This document shows, one piece after another, positions 5,953 through 31,750 of a DNA stretch of 31,814 nucleotides (position 1 is its first letter; each line of letters opens with the position of its first letter). This DNA comes from Pyrinomonadaceae bacterium. GTDB taxonomy: Bacteria; Acidobacteriota; Blastocatellia; Pyrinomonadales; Pyrinomonadaceae. Under the pieces are notes generated by a model. The model saw nothing but the letters and a program-made list of their open reading frames with translations, made no database searches and was not told the DNA's origin. The stretch lies in assembly GCA_039934315.1 (NCBI GenBank), contig JBDTMK010000001.1:1-31814 (forward strand), written 5' to 3'. Made by a program: the position numbers and the translations under genes.

Positions 5953-8790
5953 ATGAATTTCACGTTGTCCTTGCGACGCATAAAGTTCGTAATTGTCGTG
6001 GCTTTTGCCTTCGCTATTTTCTGCGTGTGCTTTTACCGTCCTTTGGGGGTCGTTAACGGAAAGGCAGCGGGTGATTCGTTGAGCTCGCCGAGCGGGCTTA
6101 CTGCTTCGGACGCGGACTATGCGACGAAAGTGGGCGTGCATTGGCAGCCGGTACGCGGGGCGATCGTCTACCGGATCTTTCGAAACACCGCGAACGATAG
6201 TTCATCGGCAGTTGACGTTGGAACAACTCCGGCAAATTATTTCTTTGACAGCGCAGCGACGGCGGGGCAGCAATATTTTTATTGGGTGCGGGCCGAATCC
6301 GCGCAGACCAATAGTGGGTTTAGCAATTCCGATCAGGGAATCCGCGCCGTGGGCGACAACAATCCGGGACCTCCTTTCCCGCCCCTTCAGCCGCCGATCG
6401 TCCCATCCGGCAATCAGATCACCGCTGCGAAAGCTTACCTCGGCAAAACTCTTTTCTGGGACGAGCAGCTCTCGTCAACGAAAACAGTTTCCTGCGGGAC
6501 GTGCCATCGCCCTTCGCACGGCGGTTCGGATCCGCGGACGTCTGTGGCGACACGCAATCCCGGATTCGACGGAACGTTCGCGACGCCCGACGACATTTTT
6601 GGATCGCCCGGCGTGCCGGTGAATTACTCTGACGGTAACTACGGATTGTCCGGCATTTTCGGCATGGGCCTTCAAGTCACCGGCCGCAAGGCTCCTTCGT
6701 ATTTGAATGCGGGTTATTCAGATCTCGGACTCTTCTGGGACGGTCGTGCGAATGACGTGTTCCGCGACCCGATAACGAATACCGTTATTCTCGGAACGAA
6801 CGGATCATTGGAAAGCCAGTCGATCTTTCCGCCGATCTCGGACGCGGAGATGGGACATAGCGGCCGTGATTGGCCGCAGGTTGCAGCTCGAGTATCGGCC
6901 TCCAAGCCCCTGGTACTCGCGCAAAACATTCCCGCAGGGCTGATGGCGTGGATCGACGGCCGCACTTACGCCGAGCTTTTCGAAGAAGCTTTCGGATCGC
7001 CCGGGATCACACCGGCCCGCATCGCCATGGCGATCGGCACACATGAGCGAACTCTCATTTCCGATAGAACCCCGCTCGACAGATACTCCGCCAATATTGG
7101 GACGCTCACGGTCCAGGAAGAGGATGGACGCGATTTGTTCCTTGCGCTGCAATGCAATTTTTGTCACGGCGGCCCGCTGATGAGCGATCAATCTTTTAAT
7201 AACGTCGGCGTCCGTCCGCAGATCGAGGATCGCGGCCGCGGCGCGATCACCGGTTTTCCGGTCGACGACGCGCGATTCAAGACGCCCAGTCTGCGAAACC
7301 TGGAACTTCGGGCGCCTTACATGCACAACGGCCGCTTTGCGACGGTTGAAGACGTAGTGGAGTTCTACAATCGCGGCGGCGATTTTGACGCACCCAATAT
7401 CGATCACACTCGAATTCGTGCGCGAAACCTGACCGCTCAGCAAAAGACCGATCTGGCCGCATTTATGAAGCGCCCGCTGACCGACGAGCGGGTGAAGTTC
7501 GAGCTGCCGCCGTTTGATCGTCCACAACTTTTTACAGAATCGAATCGCGTGCCTGTTGTTTCGGGCAGTGGCCGTTCCGGGTCCGGCGCGTTCGAACCGA
7601 ATCCGATCGCGATCGAGCCGCCCATGGTTGGCAATCCTAGTTTTACAGTGGGCGTTTCAAATGCGCTTGGCGGAGCTCCGGCCGTTGTCGTTATCGACTC
7701 GGCCGATCCGAGTGTGGGTGCGAGCATCCCTGGCTCGGGTTCTTTTGCCCGCATCAGCGTCAACCTGGCCGGCGGTGGATTCGGCAATGGATACGGATCG
7801 GCGAATCTGTCGATCCCCAATAACCCGGCGTTGGTCGGTCAGACATTTTACGGCCGATGGTATGTCACGGACGCGGGCGCGACAAACGGCTTTTCCGTCT
7901 CGCGCGTTTTTCAATTCACGATCTTTGGCAACGCGGCCGTCCAGCATGCTGTGCCTTTCGATTTTGATGGCGACCGCAAAACCGACATCGGAATCTTCCG
8001 TCCTGCAGGCGCCGCTTCCGAATGGTGGGTGAATCGAAGCGGCAATGGCCAGACGTTCGCTCTTCAGTTCGGAGCATCGACTGACAAGATCACTCCGGCC
8101 GATTACACCGGCGACGGGAAGGCCGATATCGCGTTCTTCCGTCCTGCATCGGGCGAATGGTATGTCCTGCGGTCCGAAGACTTCTCCTTCTTCGCTCTTC
8201 CTTTCGGGACCAACGGCGACGTGCCAGTAACGGCCGATTATGACGCTGACGGGAAGGCAGACTTCGCCGTTTTTAGACCGTCGTCATCGACGTGGTTCCT
8301 CTCACAATCCGCCGGCGCTCCGACCCGAATCCTTCAGTTCGGAATAGCCGGTGATCAACCCGTCGTGGCCGATTACGATGGCGATGGAATGGCGGATGTC
8401 GGGATCTTTCGTCAGGCCCAGGGCGGAGCTGAGTGGTGGATCAATCGGAGCACTGCAGGATCACTTGCGATGCAGTTCGGGGCGAACACGGATAAACCCG
8501 TGCAGGGCGATTACACAGGTGACGGTAAATCGGACGTCGCAATTTGGCGACCGGCGAGCGGTGAGTGGTTCATCGTGCGAAGTGAAGATTCTTCTTTCTA
8601 CGGATTCCCGTTCGGCACGAACGGCGACGTGCCCGCTCCCGGCGATTATGATGGGGACGGGAAGTTCGACGCGGCCGTGTTCCGGCCATCCAACTCAACC
8701 TGGTTCATTGGACGGACGACCGCGGGAACGCAGATCGTGCAGTTCGGCGCGACGGGCGACAGGCCGATACCGAATGCGTTCGTGCCTTGA
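5953..8790 (+). CDS. Secreted di-heme cytochrome c peroxidase/MauG-family protein with an N-terminal FN3-like domain and a C-terminal FG-GAP cassette
   Basis: Two CxxCH motifs (CGTCH, CNFCH), FWDGRA, FKTPSLRN, PYMHNG; six DxxGDxKxD-like repeats at the C-terminus. Confidence 0.85.
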   Translation: MNFTLSLRRIKFVIVVAFAFAIFCVCFYRPLGVVNGKAAGDSLSSPSGLTASDADYATKVGVHWQPVRGAIVYRIFRNTANDSSSAVDVGTTPANYFFDSAATAGQQYFYWVRAESAQTNSGFSNSDQGIRAVGDNNPGPPFPPLQPPIVPSGNQITAAKAYLGKTLFWDEQLSSTKTVSCGTCHRPSHGGSDPRTSVATRNPGFDGTFATPDDIFGSPGVPVNYSDGNYGLSGIFGMGLQVTGRKAPSYLNAGYSDLGLFWDGRANDVFRDPITNTVILGTNGSLESQSIFPPISDAEMGHSGRDWPQVAARVSASKPLVLAQNIPAGLMAWIDGRTYAELFEEAFGSPGITPARIAMAIGTHERTLISDRTPLDRYSANIGTLTVQEEDGRDLFLALQCNFCHGGPLMSDQSFNNVGVRPQIEDRGRGAITGFPVDDARFKTPSLRNLELRAPYMHNGRFATVEDVVEFYNRGGDFDAPNIDHTRIRARNLTAQQKTDLAAFMKRPLTDERVKFELPPFDRPQLFTESNRVPVVSGSGRSGSGAFEPNPIAIEPPMVGNPSFTVGVSNALGGAPAVVVIDSADPSVGASIPGSGSFARISVNLAGGGFGNGYGSANLSIPNNPALVGQTFYGRWYVTDAGATNGFSVSRVFQFTIFGNAAVQHAVPFDFDGDRKTDIGIFRPAGAASEWWVNRSGNGQTFALQFGASTDKITPADYTGDGKADIAFFRPASGEWYVLRSEDFSFFALPFGTNGDVPVTADYDADGKADFAVFRPSSSTWFLSQSAGAPTRILQFGIAGDQPVVADYDGDGMADVGIFRQAQGGAEWWINRSTAGSLAMQFGANTDKPVQGDYTGDGKSDVAIWRPASGEWFIVRSEDSSFYGFPFGTNGDVPAPGDYDGDGKFDAAVFRPSNSTWFIGRTTAGTQIVQFGATGDRPIPNAFVP
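7951..8790 (+). repeat. FG-GAP-like C-terminal cassette, copy 1
   Basis: 840 nt, collinear with 11462-12301. About 31 amino-acid differences over 279 aa by manual count. Confidence 0.9.
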
Positions 8791-9013: not shown

Positions 9014-12000
9014 GTGAAAGTTGTAAGAATAGTTTTCTTTTTTTTCGCCATCGCTGTAATTGCAGCACCGGTATGGTGGTACATATCCGCAGACGTCAAC
9101 GAGAAGGAGTTCGATGATGACGAACCGGATCTGCCGACATCCGTAAAGATCACGGATAAAGAAGAATATTTCCGACTGCGCAATGAGCATCTGGATCTGC
9201 TCCGCGGTTATGACACGGCCGAACAGGATTCCCGCACCAACGCCGTGCGTAAAATGGAGCAGGCCGAACGCGAGCTCGCGGCGCAAAGAGCGATTGAAGG
9301 CGTGCCAACTCTTGTGCGCGCGTGGCGTCCGCTCGGCCCCGCGCCGATCCCGGTGCCACCCAGCGCGACAAACAGCGGACGCGTTTCAGCGATCGCCGTT
9401 CACCCGACCAATCCGAATATCGTTTATGTCGGCACGGCGCAGGGCGGACTTTACCGCACTTTGGATGGCGGGGCCACATGGACGCCGTTGATGGACAGCG
9501 CTTTGACGCTTGCGATCGGTGCAGTAGCGATAGCTCCGTCTGATCCCACGACGGTTTTTGTCGGCACGGGCGAGGCCGCTCTTTGCGGGAGCGGTTGCTT
9601 TATCGGGGTCGGGCTTTATCGGATCACGAATGCCGATACGGCACCGCTTCTATCGCAAGTCATAAACAAAGACGCAGGTGGGAACGACGTCTTTACCGGT
9701 CGGGCCGTCGGCGAGATCATTATCCACCCGACGGATCCGAATATTGTATTTGCCGGAACAACCACTGGTGTCGCGGGCCTCGGGCAGGGAACTACCGGAG
9801 CGACTCTTCCAAACGCGGGACTTTTCCGCACGACGAATGCAATGTCGGCGGACCCAAGGTTTGCAAAAATTGCGATCAGCGGAACTCTTGGCTTAAGCCG
9901 TTCGGTTGTCGATCTCGCGATCGAACCAGGCAATCCCAACCGGATGGTTGCCGCGGTCATCGGCAGCGGTAACGACGGCGGAGTTTATCTTTCGACCGAC
10001 GCCCTCGCGACCACGCCGACCTTTACACGCACCCTTGCTACCGGCGATGGTTCGACCCTTGGACGAACCGAGTTTGCGGTCAACAAAACCGGCGACGTCG
10101 TCACGATCTTTGCGGCGACCGGTACCTCCAACGGAACACTTTTCAAATCCGTTGATGCGGGCGCAACCTTCAATCCCGCCGGCGGCGGCACGGGTTTCTG
10201 CAGCTCTCAGTGTTTTTACGACATCGCCGTGGAAGTGGATCCGACAGACGTGAATCGTGTTTATCTCGGTGGTTCGCCAAGCCTCGTTTTTGGGCGTTCG
10301 ACTACGGGTGGGGCGGCCTTTACGAACAGCTCGAACGGGTTGCACGTCGACACACAAGCATTCGCTCTCGCACCTTCCAATCCGAGCATTATGTACTTTG
10401 GAAGCGACGGCGGGATCTGGAAAACGGGCGACGTTCGATCGGTGGGAGCCGTTACCTGGACAAGCCTCAACAACACGACCTTTAGTGCGACGCAGTTCAT
10501 GGGATTAGCTCTGCACCCGGTCGATCGCAACTATCTGCTCGGCGGCACGCAGGACAACGGTACCGAATTTCTCGCTCCCGACGGCTTCACCTGGGTCCGA
10601 TCGGACGGCGGCGACGGTGGCTTCGCGGCCATCGATCAGAACGCGACGACGCCGACAAACGTCGTGGCTTATCACACGTACTTCAGCCAGACCACGACGC
10701 AGGTTGGTTTCGAGCGCGCCTTAGCGACCGAACCGAGCGGCGATCCTTTCTGGTCTACTTTTCAGGGCTGCCGAAACGGAACATCGAACAACGGTATCCT
10801 ATGTGCCGACCCGGTCTTGTTCTACGCTCCGCTTGTCCGCGGACCGGGAACGCCGAATACGATTTACTACGGGACAAATCGCCTTTATCGTTCGATGAAC
10901 ATGGGAACAACGATGACGGACGTGAGCGGGACTTTGCCGGCGCGACTCGGCGCGATCGCGATCGCGCCCCAGGACGATAATGTGCGTCTTGTCGGCCTGA
11001 CGACCGGGGCCGTTTACCTTTCGATGACCGCCGGAGCTACGACGATGACAAACGTCACGGGACCGATCCCGGCACGTTACATCGGACGCATTGCGATCGA
11101 CCCGACAAATGCGAACGTGGCCTACGTCGCTCTTAACGGTTTCGGTTTGCCTGCCGGGCAGCACGTCTGGAAAACGACGAACCTTTTGACCGGGGCTCCG
11201 ACATGGGCTCCCGCCGGAGCGGGAATTCCCGACACTCCGGCAAATGCTTTTGCGATTGATCCTGCGAACACTCAGAACATTTTTGCCGGCACCGACATCG
11301 GTGTCTTTAGATCCGAGAACGGCGGCGCATCCTGGCAGCCTTTCAGTCCCGGGCTGCCGCGAGTAGCAATTTTTGGAATGGAGTTCCAGGCGATGCATCG
11401 AGTCCTGCGCATCGCCACGCACGGTCGGGGAATTTACGAATACCCGTTTGCGAACCAGCGTGCGCCGTTCGATTTTGATGGCGACAACAAGACGGACATC
11501 GGGATCTTCCGTCCCGCCGGTTCGGCTTCAGAATGGTGGATCAATCGAAGCGGCAATGGCCAGACGTTCGCACTTCAGTTCGGAGCGTCGACGGACAAGA
11601 TCGCCCCGGCCGATTACACCGGCGACGGGAAAACGGACATTGCTTTCTTCCGTCCTGCATCTGGCGAATGGTTCATTTTACGGAGCGAAGATTTCTCGTT
11701 CTTCGCACTTCCGTTTGGAACGAATGGCGATGTCCCCGTGCCCGCAGATTACGACGCGGACGGGAAGGCCGACTTCGCAGTGTTCCGGCCCTCGAACTCG
11801 AACTGGTTCATCTCGCAGTCCTCGGGAGCCCCAACCCGCATATTCCAATTCGGTATCACGGGTGATCAACCCGTCGTCGCGGACTACGACGGAGACGGGA
11901 AGGCGGATGTGGGAATCTTTCGTCAAGCCGCGGGCGGAGCGGAATGGTGGATCAGTCGAAGCACAGCCGGACCGCTCGCGATCCAGTTCGGTGCGAACAC

Positions 12001-12301
12001 AGACAAAGCGGTGCAAGGAGATTACACTGGTGACGGAAAATCCGATGTCGCAGTTTGGCGGCCGGCGAGCGGTGAGTGGTTTATTGTGCGGAGCGAGGAC
12101 TTCTCCTTCTACGGATTCCCGTTCGGAGCGAACGGGGACGTTCCGGCTTCGGGCGACTACGATGGAGACGGCAAGTTCGACCCGACCGTGTTTCGTCCCT
12201 CATCCGCGACATGGTTCATTGCGAGAACGACCGCAGGAACACAGATCGTGCAGTTCGGTGCAAACGGTGATAGGCCGATCCCGAACGCGTTCGTACCTTG
12301 A
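9014..12301 (+). CDS. Secreted BNR/Asp-box (Vps10/GH74-like) beta-propeller protein with C-terminal FG-GAP cassette
   Basis: N-terminal signal/TM segment, Asp-box-like repeats (YRTLDGGATW, FKSVDAGATF, FRSENGGASW), same FG-GAP tail as the upstream gene. Confidence 0.8.
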   Translation: MKVVRIVFFFFAIAVIAAPVWWYISADVNEKEFDDDEPDLPTSVKITDKEEYFRLRNEHLDLLRGYDTAEQDSRTNAVRKMEQAERELAAQRAIEGVPTLVRAWRPLGPAPIPVPPSATNSGRVSAIAVHPTNPNIVYVGTAQGGLYRTLDGGATWTPLMDSALTLAIGAVAIAPSDPTTVFVGTGEAALCGSGCFIGVGLYRITNADTAPLLSQVINKDAGGNDVFTGRAVGEIIIHPTDPNIVFAGTTTGVAGLGQGTTGATLPNAGLFRTTNAMSADPRFAKIAISGTLGLSRSVVDLAIEPGNPNRMVAAVIGSGNDGGVYLSTDALATTPTFTRTLATGDGSTLGRTEFAVNKTGDVVTIFAATGTSNGTLFKSVDAGATFNPAGGGTGFCSSQCFYDIAVEVDPTDVNRVYLGGSPSLVFGRSTTGGAAFTNSSNGLHVDTQAFALAPSNPSIMYFGSDGGIWKTGDVRSVGAVTWTSLNNTTFSATQFMGLALHPVDRNYLLGGTQDNGTEFLAPDGFTWVRSDGGDGGFAAIDQNATTPTNVVAYHTYFSQTTTQVGFERALATEPSGDPFWSTFQGCRNGTSNNGILCADPVLFYAPLVRGPGTPNTIYYGTNRLYRSMNMGTTMTDVSGTLPARLGAIAIAPQDDNVRLVGLTTGAVYLSMTAGATTMTNVTGPIPARYIGRIAIDPTNANVAYVALNGFGLPAGQHVWKTTNLLTGAPTWAPAGAGIPDTPANAFAIDPANTQNIFAGTDIGVFRSENGGASWQPFSPGLPRVAIFGMEFQAMHRVLRIATHGRGIYEYPFANQRAPFDFDGDNKTDIGIFRPAGSASEWWINRSGNGQTFALQFGASTDKIAPADYTGDGKTDIAFFRPASGEWFILRSEDFSFFALPFGTNGDVPVPADYDADGKADFAVFRPSNSNWFISQSSGAPTRIFQFGITGDQPVVADYDGDGKADVGIFRQAAGGAEWWISRSTAGPLAIQFGANTDKAVQGDYTGDGKSDVAVWRPASGEWFIVRSEDFSFYGFPFGANGDVPASGDYDGDGKFDPTVFRPSSATWFIARTTAGTQIVQFGANGDRPIPNAFVP
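11462..12301 (+). repeat. FG-GAP-like C-terminal cassette, copy 2
   Basis: Same length and terminal motif (GDRPIPNAFVP-stop) as 7951-8790. Confidence 0.9.
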
Positions 12302-12325: not shown

Positions 12326-12365
12326 AAGAGAAGGCGGCGTTCTATTGACGCCGCCTTCTCTTTTG
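12326..12365. terminator. Intrinsic terminator between convergent genes, probably bidirectional
   Basis: Perfect 15-bp stem aagagaaggcggcgt / acgccgccttctctt, followed by a T run. Confidence 0.85.
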
Positions 12366-12380
12366 CAACAGCTAAATGAT

Positions 12381-14111
12381 CTACCAGCGAACCGGCCGAA
12401 GATCCGGGCCGATGACGTGCTCGCCGGAAAGGATTTCCGGCGAACGGTTGGGATCCAACAGATTCGCACCGTCGCTATGAATGAAGTGGCCGCCGTACCA
12501 GACAACGACGTCCTGACCCACGATCGACTCGCCGTTTATGAACGGATTGATCTGAATGAACGCGTTCGCACTGGTTGTCTGATTGAATCCATCGTCAATT
12601 TCGTTTTGAAGCGCTGTGCCGCCGATAACTTCCTTGTAACGAAGGACCCAGAAATCACTGACGGCAAAAGCGTCGGCGGGTCCATCGAGCCTACCCGGTA
12701 CCAGCTCATATGCCTCGTTGCCAGACGAATTTTGAATAAGCAAACTTCGGTTTGTCCCAATATTCCGCTGTCGCGTCAGCTCGGTCGTTAACGGCTGTAG
12801 AAACTTCCGCCCACGTTCAACCTGAAAGACTTTATTGTTCGGCTGCACGACGTCGAAATCGAACCGCCAGTAAGCGTGGTGATTGTGAACATCGCACACG
12901 CAAGAATTATTAGTCGTACCGAATGCGTAGCGTGGCCTGATTGTCCCGTCCGCCGCGAATCGCCACTCCATTAGATAACGGTACCAGCCCGCCTGCATTT
13001 CCGAGACTAAGACTGCTTCGGGTCCATACTGGGTATTTTGGACATAAATTGCTACACCACGGAAATTGCCTGTGTCGCTTCCGGTTTCGAGAACAGTTGT
13101 GGCAACCTGTCCGGCGGCGAGCAGTCGAATCCCGGGTGCTAGATCCGTCGCTCCCGCATCCGGCGCGTTAAACATGTCCTCCTGCCACTGCCAGTCACGA
13201 TAAGGGCCGCAGGTCGACGGATTGTACTGGACGTTCAGGACCGGAACATGGCCTCGCTTCAAGACACTCTTGCCTTTGTATTTCACATCGCGGATCTCAA
13301 TGCCTGATTTGCGGGTTCCCGACGAAGCGGATGGCCTAATGACAAGCATCTCCCAAAGGGTCGTCATGCTCGTCTGGTCGATAACCGTCAGGGTCGCCTG
13401 TCCGGCAGTGCCGTTCGACGTAGTAGTTTGACCTGCGGAACTTGGGCCGCACGAGCCCTCAACCGATCTGGACTGCGGCGGGGCGTTCCCCTCGTAACGA
13501 ACAGCTTCGCCACGTTTTATACTGACGCCGACAATTTCGTTCTGCGTTCCGGCACCTCGGAGGCCGACATTTAGAAGGCGTTCTACCGTGCCGTCCAGGA
13601 TGGTCGTCGGCGGCATCGGCTGGTATGCCTTCATCGCACCGCTCGCGAGATCGTTTGAATACCTCGAGTCCCCGCGAAGTATCGCGAGAGCTTCATTGAA
13701 CTCCTCGTCGTTCGGCAGCGGATCGCTATATTCTTCGCGCACGGTAATGGACTCGCGGCCCGCGAAATCCGCTTCGGCGACGATCGCGCGGTCGTTTGTA
13801 TAATCGTAAAACACCAGGCGAAAGCGCGTCGGGGGCCGTTCCGATTTCGACTTCGATTCGGCGAGATAGTCGAGACTCAGCAGGCGATACCTAACGCCAT
13901 TGAGAAAAGACTGAACGGCGGGACTGTTTTCGACGCGCCTTGCAGCGGCATTCGCCTCCTCTTGCGAAGGACCCCATATGGCGGCTTTGATTATCAAACC
14001 GCCTTTTTTCTTCGAGCCGCGTGGCCCCGAGTACTTCGCCATTGCACACGAAACGAGAACAAAAATCAGCATTACGGAAGCGGCAGCAAGGTAACGTGGT
14101 TGGACAGACAT
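12381..14111 (-). CDS. Secreted copper amine oxidase-like protein with a non-canonical cofactor motif
   Basis: Start MSVQPRY at 14111 with an AAGGAG SD and a signal peptide. QAGWYRYLMEWRFAADGTI aligns to the CAO TxxNYDY..W....DGTI motif, HNHHAYWRFDFDV to HQH...RLDxD, and DVVVWYGGHFIH to the third Cu-His motif. Confidence 0.7.
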   Translation of the reverse strand: MSVQPRYLAAASVMLIFVLVSCAMAKYSGPRGSKKKGGLIIKAAIWGPSQEEANAAARRVENSPAVQSFLNGVRYRLLSLDYLAESKSKSERPPTRFRLVFYDYTNDRAIVAEADFAGRESITVREEYSDPLPNDEEFNEALAILRGDSRYSNDLASGAMKAYQPMPPTTILDGTVERLLNVGLRGAGTQNEIVGVSIKRGEAVRYEGNAPPQSRSVEGSCGPSSAGQTTTSNGTAGQATLTVIDQTSMTTLWEMLVIRPSASSGTRKSGIEIRDVKYKGKSVLKRGHVPVLNVQYNPSTCGPYRDWQWQEDMFNAPDAGATDLAPGIRLLAAGQVATTVLETGSDTGNFRGVAIYVQNTQYGPEAVLVSEMQAGWYRYLMEWRFAADGTIRPRYAFGTTNNSCVCDVHNHHAYWRFDFDVVQPNNKVFQVERGRKFLQPLTTELTRQRNIGTNRSLLIQNSSGNEAYELVPGRLDGPADAFAVSDFWVLRYKEVIGGTALQNEIDDGFNQTTSANAFIQINPFINGESIVGQDVVVWYGGHFIHSDGANLLDPNRSPEILSGEHVIGPDLRPVRW

Positions 14112-14263
14112 TTCGACTCCTTCTTGTGAAAAAATAACGAGATCGGTCAGCAGAAGTATCACCGAGAGGGGCCCGTTTCGCAAGCTTTGTGAGGGCGCTA
14201 GAAAAATACGCCCGCGAGTCTGATAAACATCGCGGGCGGATAAAGAGATTGGAAACATTCGAT

Positions 14264-31001: not shown

Positions 31002-31750
31002 GGGTCTAGAGTACTTGAGCGATCATAATGGATGAGACCCCAACAACGACAACAGCGTTTTGTATAGATTGTCACGGCGGTGATTGAACCTATACTCGCA
31101 CTCTTTGAGGTGGAGCAGAAACTTGTCCTGGCGAAGGCCGTTGAACTTCTGCATCCGTCTTTTGGCGAATGACCAAAAGCTTTCGATTCCGTTTATATGA
31201 CCGGTCTTGTTGGCGAATTCATTCATGTGATGATTAACGCGAAAATGCTTCTTGAATCCGACATCGACCAACCCGTCATAACCACGCCAGCGGTCCGAGT
31301 GGATGACAACGTCGAGACCGACTTTGCCCCGTATAATCGCTTGCAAAGTCTGCTTTTGGCAGTTCGGAACAATCTCGGTATAAACCCATCCGTTACGTTT
31401 GAAAATACCGAAGACGATTGTCTTGCCGCTGGCTCCGCGACCACGCTTTCCCCGGATCCTTCGACGACCAAAATAGGACTCGTCGACCTCGATCTCTCCG
31501 GTCTGAAAAGGAGCGTGTCGCTCGCATTCTTCCAGCAGCCGGACGCGTATTTTTTGAAAGATCAGATTAACGCTTTTTCGAGTTATACCGGTCAGCTCGC
31601 TCGTCTTTGCCGCGGTCAGATCCATCGCAAAATAACGAATTATTTGGCGAAATTTCTTCTCCGCGATTCGGGAACGGCGATAATACCGGTTTACTCGTTG
31701 CACTTCAGTAGCTTAGCACCCCTGTAATTGTGCTTAACTACTCTAGACCC
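31002..31750 (-). mobile_element. Complete IS1595-family insertion sequence (IS1016-like), 749 bp
   Basis: Terminal inverted repeats GGGTCTAGAGTA(C/G)TT(G/A)AGC, 17/19 identical; TTAA directly outside both ends; a single transposase ORF inside. Confidence 0.9.
31023..31703 (-). CDS. IS1595-family DDE transposase
   Basis: EVDESYFG (D), HSDRWRGY (D), NGIESFWS (E), HLKECEYRFN; N-terminal RRSRIAEKKFRQII typical of the IS1016 group. Confidence 0.92.
   Translation of the reverse strand: MQRVNRYYRRSRIAEKKFRQIIRYFAMDLTAAKTSELTGITRKSVNLIFQKIRVRLLEECERHAPFQTGEIEVDESYFGRRRIRGKRGRGASGKTIVFGIFKRNGWVYTEIVPNCQKQTLQAIIRGKVGLDVVIHSDRWRGYDGLVDVGFKKHFRVNHHMNEFANKTGHINGIESFWSFAKRRMQKFNGLRQDKFLLHLKECEYRFNHRRDNLYKTLLSLLGSHPL

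Follow-up and report, generated by a model that had tools for sequence, protein, structure and literature searches.

The gene P0001 of this Pyrinomonadaceae bacterium encodes a protein with the copper amine oxidase (CAO) fold in which W-Y-R-Y replaces N-Y-D/E-Y around the cofactor-precursor tyrosine, and which lacks the long inter-subunit arms. Failing both the consensus and the arms, P0001 and its homologues are not canonical CAOs and form a sister family within the PF01179 fold. We favour, at slightly better than even confidence, an amine oxidase that depends on copper and a tyrosine quinone (probably TPQ) and whose pocket is open and re-lined.

The gene and its fold

P0001 is a single open reading frame of 576 aa on the minus strand of the 31,814-nucleotide stretch analysed here (the window), running from an ATG at 14111 to a stop at 12381 (Table 1). 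A longer start at the ATG at 14258, giving 625 aa, was rejected because the AAGGAG site and the length of the near homologues (approximately 576–580 aa) favour 14111. The plus-strand reading of 12381–14111 contains stops and was also rejected. From its signal region the protein is predicted to be exported, in keeping with the secretion proposed by an earlier sequence-only reading: the model has an N-terminal helix, and an N-terminal hydrophobic region occurs in 117/120 near homologues and 68 of 109 distant ones. In a second clade, a rough window test found such a region in 2/71 proteins. Past the stop, the 14-bp inverted repeat is, judging from its sequence, likely a terminator; a promoter and terminator scan made no calls, this repeat included. 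The source genome carries a single P0001-type copy, and a search of its assembly (72% complete) found no canonical CAO, tyrosinase or galactose oxidase.

From end to end, the chain follows the CAO fold (D2-D3-D4, with a beta-sandwich catalytic domain). The structure model (pLDDT 80, pTM 0.80) had only CAOs as its top structural matches, with AGAO found by Foldseek at E 2e-18, and its comparison with AGAO gave a Z of 26.4 over 440 residues (rmsd 3.8). Pfam PF01179 was matched at 35.7 bits against a cut-off of 27, whereas a search of NCBIfam with P0001 gave no match. Identity to solved CAOs is only 15–19% (18% to AGAO). The CAO fold claimed from the letters alone was thus confirmed.

Table 1. 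Features of P0001 and its flanks (window positions)
Feature	Position	Strand	Basis
CAO-fold gene P0001, 576 aa	12381..14111	-	homology and structure model
Ribosome-binding site AAGGAG, 5 nt upstream of ATG	14117..14122	-	read from sequence
Signal peptide (predicted), residues 1 to ~25	14037..14111	-	helix 6-23 in model; homologue N-termini
D2 and D3-like domains, residues ~39-206	13494..13997	-	model, structure match, profile alignments
D4 catalytic beta-sandwich with shortened arms, residues ~236-576	12384..13406	-	model, profile alignments
Tyr296, equivalent of ECAO Tyr369 / AGAO Tyr284 (H-bond to quinone O4)	13224..13226	-	alignment, clear
Tyr304-Arg305-Asp306	13194..13202	-	conservation, register score, bridging sequences
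W376-Y377-R378-Y379 replacing N-Y-D/E-Y; Tyr377 at cofactor-precursor position	12975..12986	-	alignment
Cys404, Cys406; putative partners Cys301 (13209-13211), Cys221 (13449-13451)	12894..12902	-	covariation
His409, His411 (Cu ligands by alignment) and extra His412	12876..12887	-	alignment
Asp418, Asp420; Asp534 (12510-12512)	12852..12860	-	aligned to CAO second-metal aspartates
His545 (third Cu ligand by alignment) and extra His542	12477..12488	-	alignment
Perfect 14-bp inverted repeat, 7-nt loop, between convergent genes	12327..12361	.	read from sequence

Active-site residues

The register of the motif was set by hmmsearch onto AGAO and by hhalign onto ECAO (E 1e-26, 489 columns). In these profile alignments Q-A-G-W-Y-R occupies the columns of the consensus T-x-x-N-Y-D/E without matching it, and Tyr377 aligns with Tyr466 of ECAO and Tyr382 of AGAO. 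The sequence-only reading had Asn and Asp changed to Trp and Arg around a kept Tyr, and the W-Y-R-Y codons do lie at 12986–12975. An alignment, the check proposed for WYxY, revealed almost complete conservation: W376, Y377, R378, Y379, H409, H411 and H545 are identical in 120/120 near homologues, and among 151 distant representatives the motif residues are kept in at least 142 of the 144–145 scored (W376 143/145, Y377 142/144, R378 144/145).

The histidine ligands were also claimed to be kept, and three aligned copper histidines are indeed present. Residue 409 (12887) opens the H-N-H-H block and residue 538 (12500) the late W-Y-G-G-H-F-I-H block; His409, His411 and His545 lie on the expected strands in the model. 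The assignment within the C-terminal block needed correction, the ligand being His545 and His542, like His412, an extra residue. These two extra histidines (His412, 12876–12878; His542, 12486–12488) are predicted cross-strand neighbours facing opposite the copper site, where they may form a second site for a metal or ligand. His542 is found in 40/40 of the Arg-type members described below versus 117/146 of the His-type.

Asp306 is likely the catalytic base, equivalent to ECAO Asp383, and Tyr304 the gate aromatic, an assignment made from sequence comparison with moderate confidence. The position is Asp in 140/143 distant representatives, Y-R-D gives the best three-column score when set against canonical Y/F-x-D, and both base motifs are bridged by short CAO-fold proteins with an unchanged Tyr-to-Asp spacing; hhalign placed the base region differently, shifted several columns from the Asp306 register. 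Asp418, Asp420 and Asp534 correspond to what we take, from the ECAO structure, to be the second-metal (Ca) site of CAOs. The active-site residues are 97–100% conserved among His-triad members. All four cysteines occur in 247/264 members, and three members without both Cys301 and Cys404 keep Cys221 and Cys406, a pattern suggestive of disulfides Cys301-Cys404 and Cys221-Cys406. In the hhalign alignment P0001 lacks the Met that known CAOs have near the O2 site.

Loss of the arms and the altered motif

Canonical CAOs are dimers in which arms wall the active site of the partner subunit (PMC3382800, PMC7144023). Arm I, including its invariant His, is deleted in P0001, where hhalign leaves a 15-column gap and a short turn is present instead; the other two inter-subunit hairpins, one between the Tyr and HxH and one after HxH, are shortened. 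The Tyr-to-HxH spacing is 32 in 249/259 members versus 50–58 in canonical enzymes, so the shortening noted from the sequence (about 32 against about 50) holds across the family. In ECAO, His440 of arm I is presumably hydrogen-bonded across the dimer to Asp467 at the +1 position. Each of 25 canonical sequences carries both the arm-I His and a +1 Asp or Glu (25/25 for both), the consensus Thr being present in only 12/25. Arm loss would plausibly explain the replacement of the +1 Asp by Arg, because this acid no longer has its partner, the His on arm I of the second subunit. Other short CAO-fold lineages have no +1 acid either (N-Y-N-Y, H-Y-R, A-Y-H) and keep the Tyr.

TPQ needs to rotate between on- and off-copper positions. 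In AGAO, Asn381 at the −1 position sits on the TPQ ring and controls this rotation, and the N381A mutant still forms TPQ, 180-fold more slowly (PMC9491219). More generally, replacing the Asn or the acid in known enzymes makes TPQ formation or catalysis 10 to 180 times slower (PMC3382800, PMC9491219). By analogy, Trp376 is best read as a larger lid than Asn on the quinone ring.

Distribution and architecture of the family

Among 8000 scored candidates, 1456 were homologues (90% clustering), and a profile search with hits clustered at 50% identity gave 337 clusters scoring E below 1e-30. Pyrinomonadaceae (Acidobacteriota) supply the closest named homologues, while the nearest Atlas clusters belong to Acidobacteriota, Actinomycetota and Chloroflexota; Variovorax, Bacillus, Nonomuraea, Fimbriimonadia and the fungus Calcarisporiella also have members. 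None of the conclusions draws on the unpublished genome G062. The spread is patchy, with a match in 6/24 same-genus genomes, one of the six being weak, and one genome (G029) holds both the WYRY type and a canonical CAO. Longer members carry additional FN3, P-domain, DUF11, Ig-like or M4 peptidase modules, fusions typical of surface proteins. A literature search, covering few subscription papers, returned nothing on the family, on CAO pseudoenzymes or on any oxidase with WYRY.

Several members are unusual. Stand-alone catalytic-domain proteins of 376–419 aa with W-Y-R-Y or N-Y-N-Y were seen at L126:6232-7482, L127:5984-7114, L128:5502-6761 and L130:4785-6715; at L127 and L130 the N-terminal domains are encoded by a separate upstream gene. 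On a Bacillus wiedmannii plasmid (L133:2837-6745) an H-Y-R CAO-fold gene lies in pieces flanking a group II intron reverse transcriptase. The fungal member (P0139), on a 1.3 Mb contig of Calcarisporiella thermophila, is a candidate for transfer or contamination.

Branches with arginine in place of copper ligands

In 40 of 191 members His409 is changed to Arg and His545 is lost (to Arg, Gln, Lys, Leu or Phe); 30 of these 40 Arg-type members form one clade. The sequence-only reading noted neither these branches nor the absence of the arms. The Arg409 trait requires five changes, four of them forced by starred branches, on a quick IQ-TREE phylogeny built with the trait columns removed, in which gain and loss are indistinguishable and stars are less reliable. 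W-Y-R-Y, Asp306, Glu311, His411 and His542 are each present in 40/40 Arg-type members at a median mutual identity of 55%, and 44 of the 48 most conserved positions are retained, the two histidines being among the four exceptions. The one Arg-type member that was modelled has the CAO fold with identical strands (pTM 0.85, Z 25). In Pyrinomonadaceae both types share one locus behind nrdJ. Tandem copies also occur, three of the His-type at L057 and an Arg-type followed by a His-type at L085 and L092.

With this ligand set, Arg-type proteins are unlikely to self-process TPQ. Consequently, the residues that they retain would serve folding or ligand binding, or else the chemistry of the family would not be redox. 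Since these branches keep 44/48 positions, conservation of Tyr377 and Asp306 alone is no proof of quinone chemistry.

Genomic neighbourhood

The neighbours in 80 Blastocatellia loci are housekeeping genes (nrdJ in 38, Hsp33 in 23, DacB in 22). A functional linkage to these genes was rejected in favour of lineage synteny, as they do not recur among the shared neighbours of the other clade; nrdJ does lie close by at one locus from Armatimonadota (L137). At L050, L055, L067 and L072 the upstream NrdJ is 1100–1620 aa long versus approximately 850 elsewhere, a length suggesting inteins. No genes of amine or aldehyde catabolism recur beside family members in the Blastocatellia and second-clade loci, and gene context gave no clue to the substrate.

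A MauG-like di-heme gene lies two genes from P0001 in the window. Such a gene is convergent or upstream in 7/80 Blastocatellia loci and in 0/82 of the other clade, and is not a fixed partner of the family. In the window, a MauG/CCP-like di-heme protein (5953–8790) and a BNR-repeat protein (9014–12301) end in a near-identical FG-GAP repeat cassette, and an open reading frame that by eye resembles an IS1595-type transposase (31023–31703) lies in a stretch of lower GC. In the second clade, tyrosinase-like genes are nearby in five distinct loci (one a weak match) and a galactose-oxidase-like sequence in three; as raw counts, these neighbours are a modest hint of copper/O2 chemistry. A Variovorax plasmid (L123:4950-11713) carries a tyrosinase-FG-GAP gene, a member of the family and a galactose-oxidase-like gene in a row on one strand, a cluster that unites three types of copper oxidase.

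Comparison with known enzymes and proposed function

P0001 shares with AGAO (EC 1.4.3.21, PF01179) the D2-D3-D4 fold, the precursor Tyr, the three copper histidines, the putative base Asp, the O4-anchoring Tyr and the Tyr two residues past the cofactor. It differs in having W-Y-R-Y for N-Y-D-Y, a deleted arm I, short hairpins, a predicted signal peptide, four conserved cysteines and the extra His412 and His542, and in belonging to a family with branches devoid of copper ligands. Like E. coli TynA (ECAO) it is exported, in its case by prediction, and the second-metal aspartates align; unlike ECAO it has no D1 stalk, no His440 arm and no phenylacetaldehyde dehydrogenase or paa neighbours, and its Tyr-to-HxH distance is 32 instead of 58. 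Lysyl oxidase (LTQ), galactose oxidase (Tyr-Cys, stacked Trp) and the MauG-made TTQ enzymes also have cofactors derived from Tyr or Trp, the first two with copper. Their folds are unrelated to that of P0001, which has neither a LOX fold nor a seven-bladed propeller with Tyr-Cys, and they serve as chemical analogies only.

In the amine oxidase that we propose, an exported CAO-like enzyme built without long inter-subunit arms would hold copper by His409, His411 and His545. Reacting with O2, Tyr377 would oxidise itself to a quinone, in all likelihood TPQ, which Tyr296 would hold; with Asp306 acting as base, a primary amine would yield an aldehyde, ammonia and H2O2. Arg378 would probably pair with Glu371 and residue 373 of the same hairpin, Trp376 would take over from Asn as the lid and limit ring movement by stacking, and the two disulfides would brace the shortened loops. 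The Arg409 branches would represent copper-free derivatives that use the pocket for binding. As no arm lies along the channel, the site would be more open, which makes a bulky or polymer-bound amine a reasonable guess as substrate; a substrate class different from that of known CAOs is plausible. TPQ could form despite the missing Asn, because AGAO N381A forms it without this residue. The mutants AGAO N381A and HPAO N404A and E406Q make TPQ without the consensus Asn or acid, but they are engineered, slow and carry small side chains, unlike the natural Trp of P0001; no Trp variant was found in the AGAO/HPAO mutant literature searched. The indole of Trp376 may even block rotation of TPQ, which would speak against this cofactor.

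The Arg-type branches bear on an alternative that we consider unlikely, in which the site is non-redox. In a hydrolase, a lyase or a protein that binds a ligand, the metal would supply a positive charge, as Lewis acid or as anchor for an anion, for which one or two arginines could substitute; a ligand that is cationic or zwitterionic would sit in a pocket, aromatic and acidic, made of Trp376, Tyr377, Tyr304, Trp307 and Asp306. Arginine is incapable of redox chemistry, and yet Arg409 with loss of His545 is seen in 40/191 members, through at least four changes on the tree, with the pocket residues kept in 40/40, the CAO fold preserved (pTM 0.85, Z 25) and both types occupying the same Pyrinomonadaceae locus behind nrdJ. 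However, His to Arg takes one base change, repeated pseudoenzyme formation is common and 30 of the 40 belong to one clade. The triad is intact in about three-quarters of members, the retained residues may serve folding, and the tandem Arg-type and His-type pairs of L085 and L092 fit a helper beside an active copy.

Another protein-derived cofactor (Trp376 cross-linked to Tyr377, an LTQ-like adduct of trapped dopaquinone, or a Tyr radical tuned by stacking of the Trp) seems to us quite improbable. The CAO scaffold can reportedly trap dopaquinone with a nearby nucleophile, as in AGAO D298K (PDB 2yx9), and a MauG-like gene is close to P0001 in the window; moreover, Trp376 is near-invariant and placed where Asn381 of AGAO lies on the ring (PMC9491219). 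Against this, P0001 still has the Asp306 and O4-anchoring Tyr296 that the TPQ mechanism uses, Trp persists in branches that have lost two copper ligands, and other short CAO-fold lineages have Asn, His or Ala just ahead of the Tyr; the ring-face location of this residue would also suit bonding between adjacent residues poorly. With the MauG-like gene in only 7/80 and 0/82 loci, no modifying enzyme travels with the family. The Trp-Tyr cross-link suggested by the sequence-only reading therefore finds little in its favour. Taken jointly, a new protein-derived cofactor or a non-redox chemistry in which arginine repeatedly replaces copper while the Trp-Tyr-Asp pocket stays in use appears rather unlikely. 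The low identity to solved CAOs and the lack of an NCBIfam match might also indicate that the gene is decayed or misread, or that the motif arose by chance, a notion that the intact frame, the ribosome site, the confident fold and the family data (1456 homologues, 337 clusters) refute and that we regard as negligible.

Significance

To our knowledge, all structurally characterised CAOs are armed dimers with N-Y-D/E, and both features are considered important for the choice of substrate and the formation of TPQ. With neither the arms nor the consensus, this natural family offers a direct test of what TPQ biogenesis requires, and the paired His-type and Arg-type proteins make a ready-made experiment on the repurposing of a redox copper site. 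We know of no CAO-fold protein other than TPQ oxidases; if the new-cofactor or non-redox reading were true, this family would be the first, possibly with a monomeric protein. The small stand-alone catalytic-domain versions could be useful as biocatalyst scaffolds. Finally, with its spread over Acidobacteria, Actinomycetota, Betaproteobacteria, Bacillus, Armatimonadota and a fungus, the family could be an unrecognised source of extracellular H2O2 or amine oxidation in soil.
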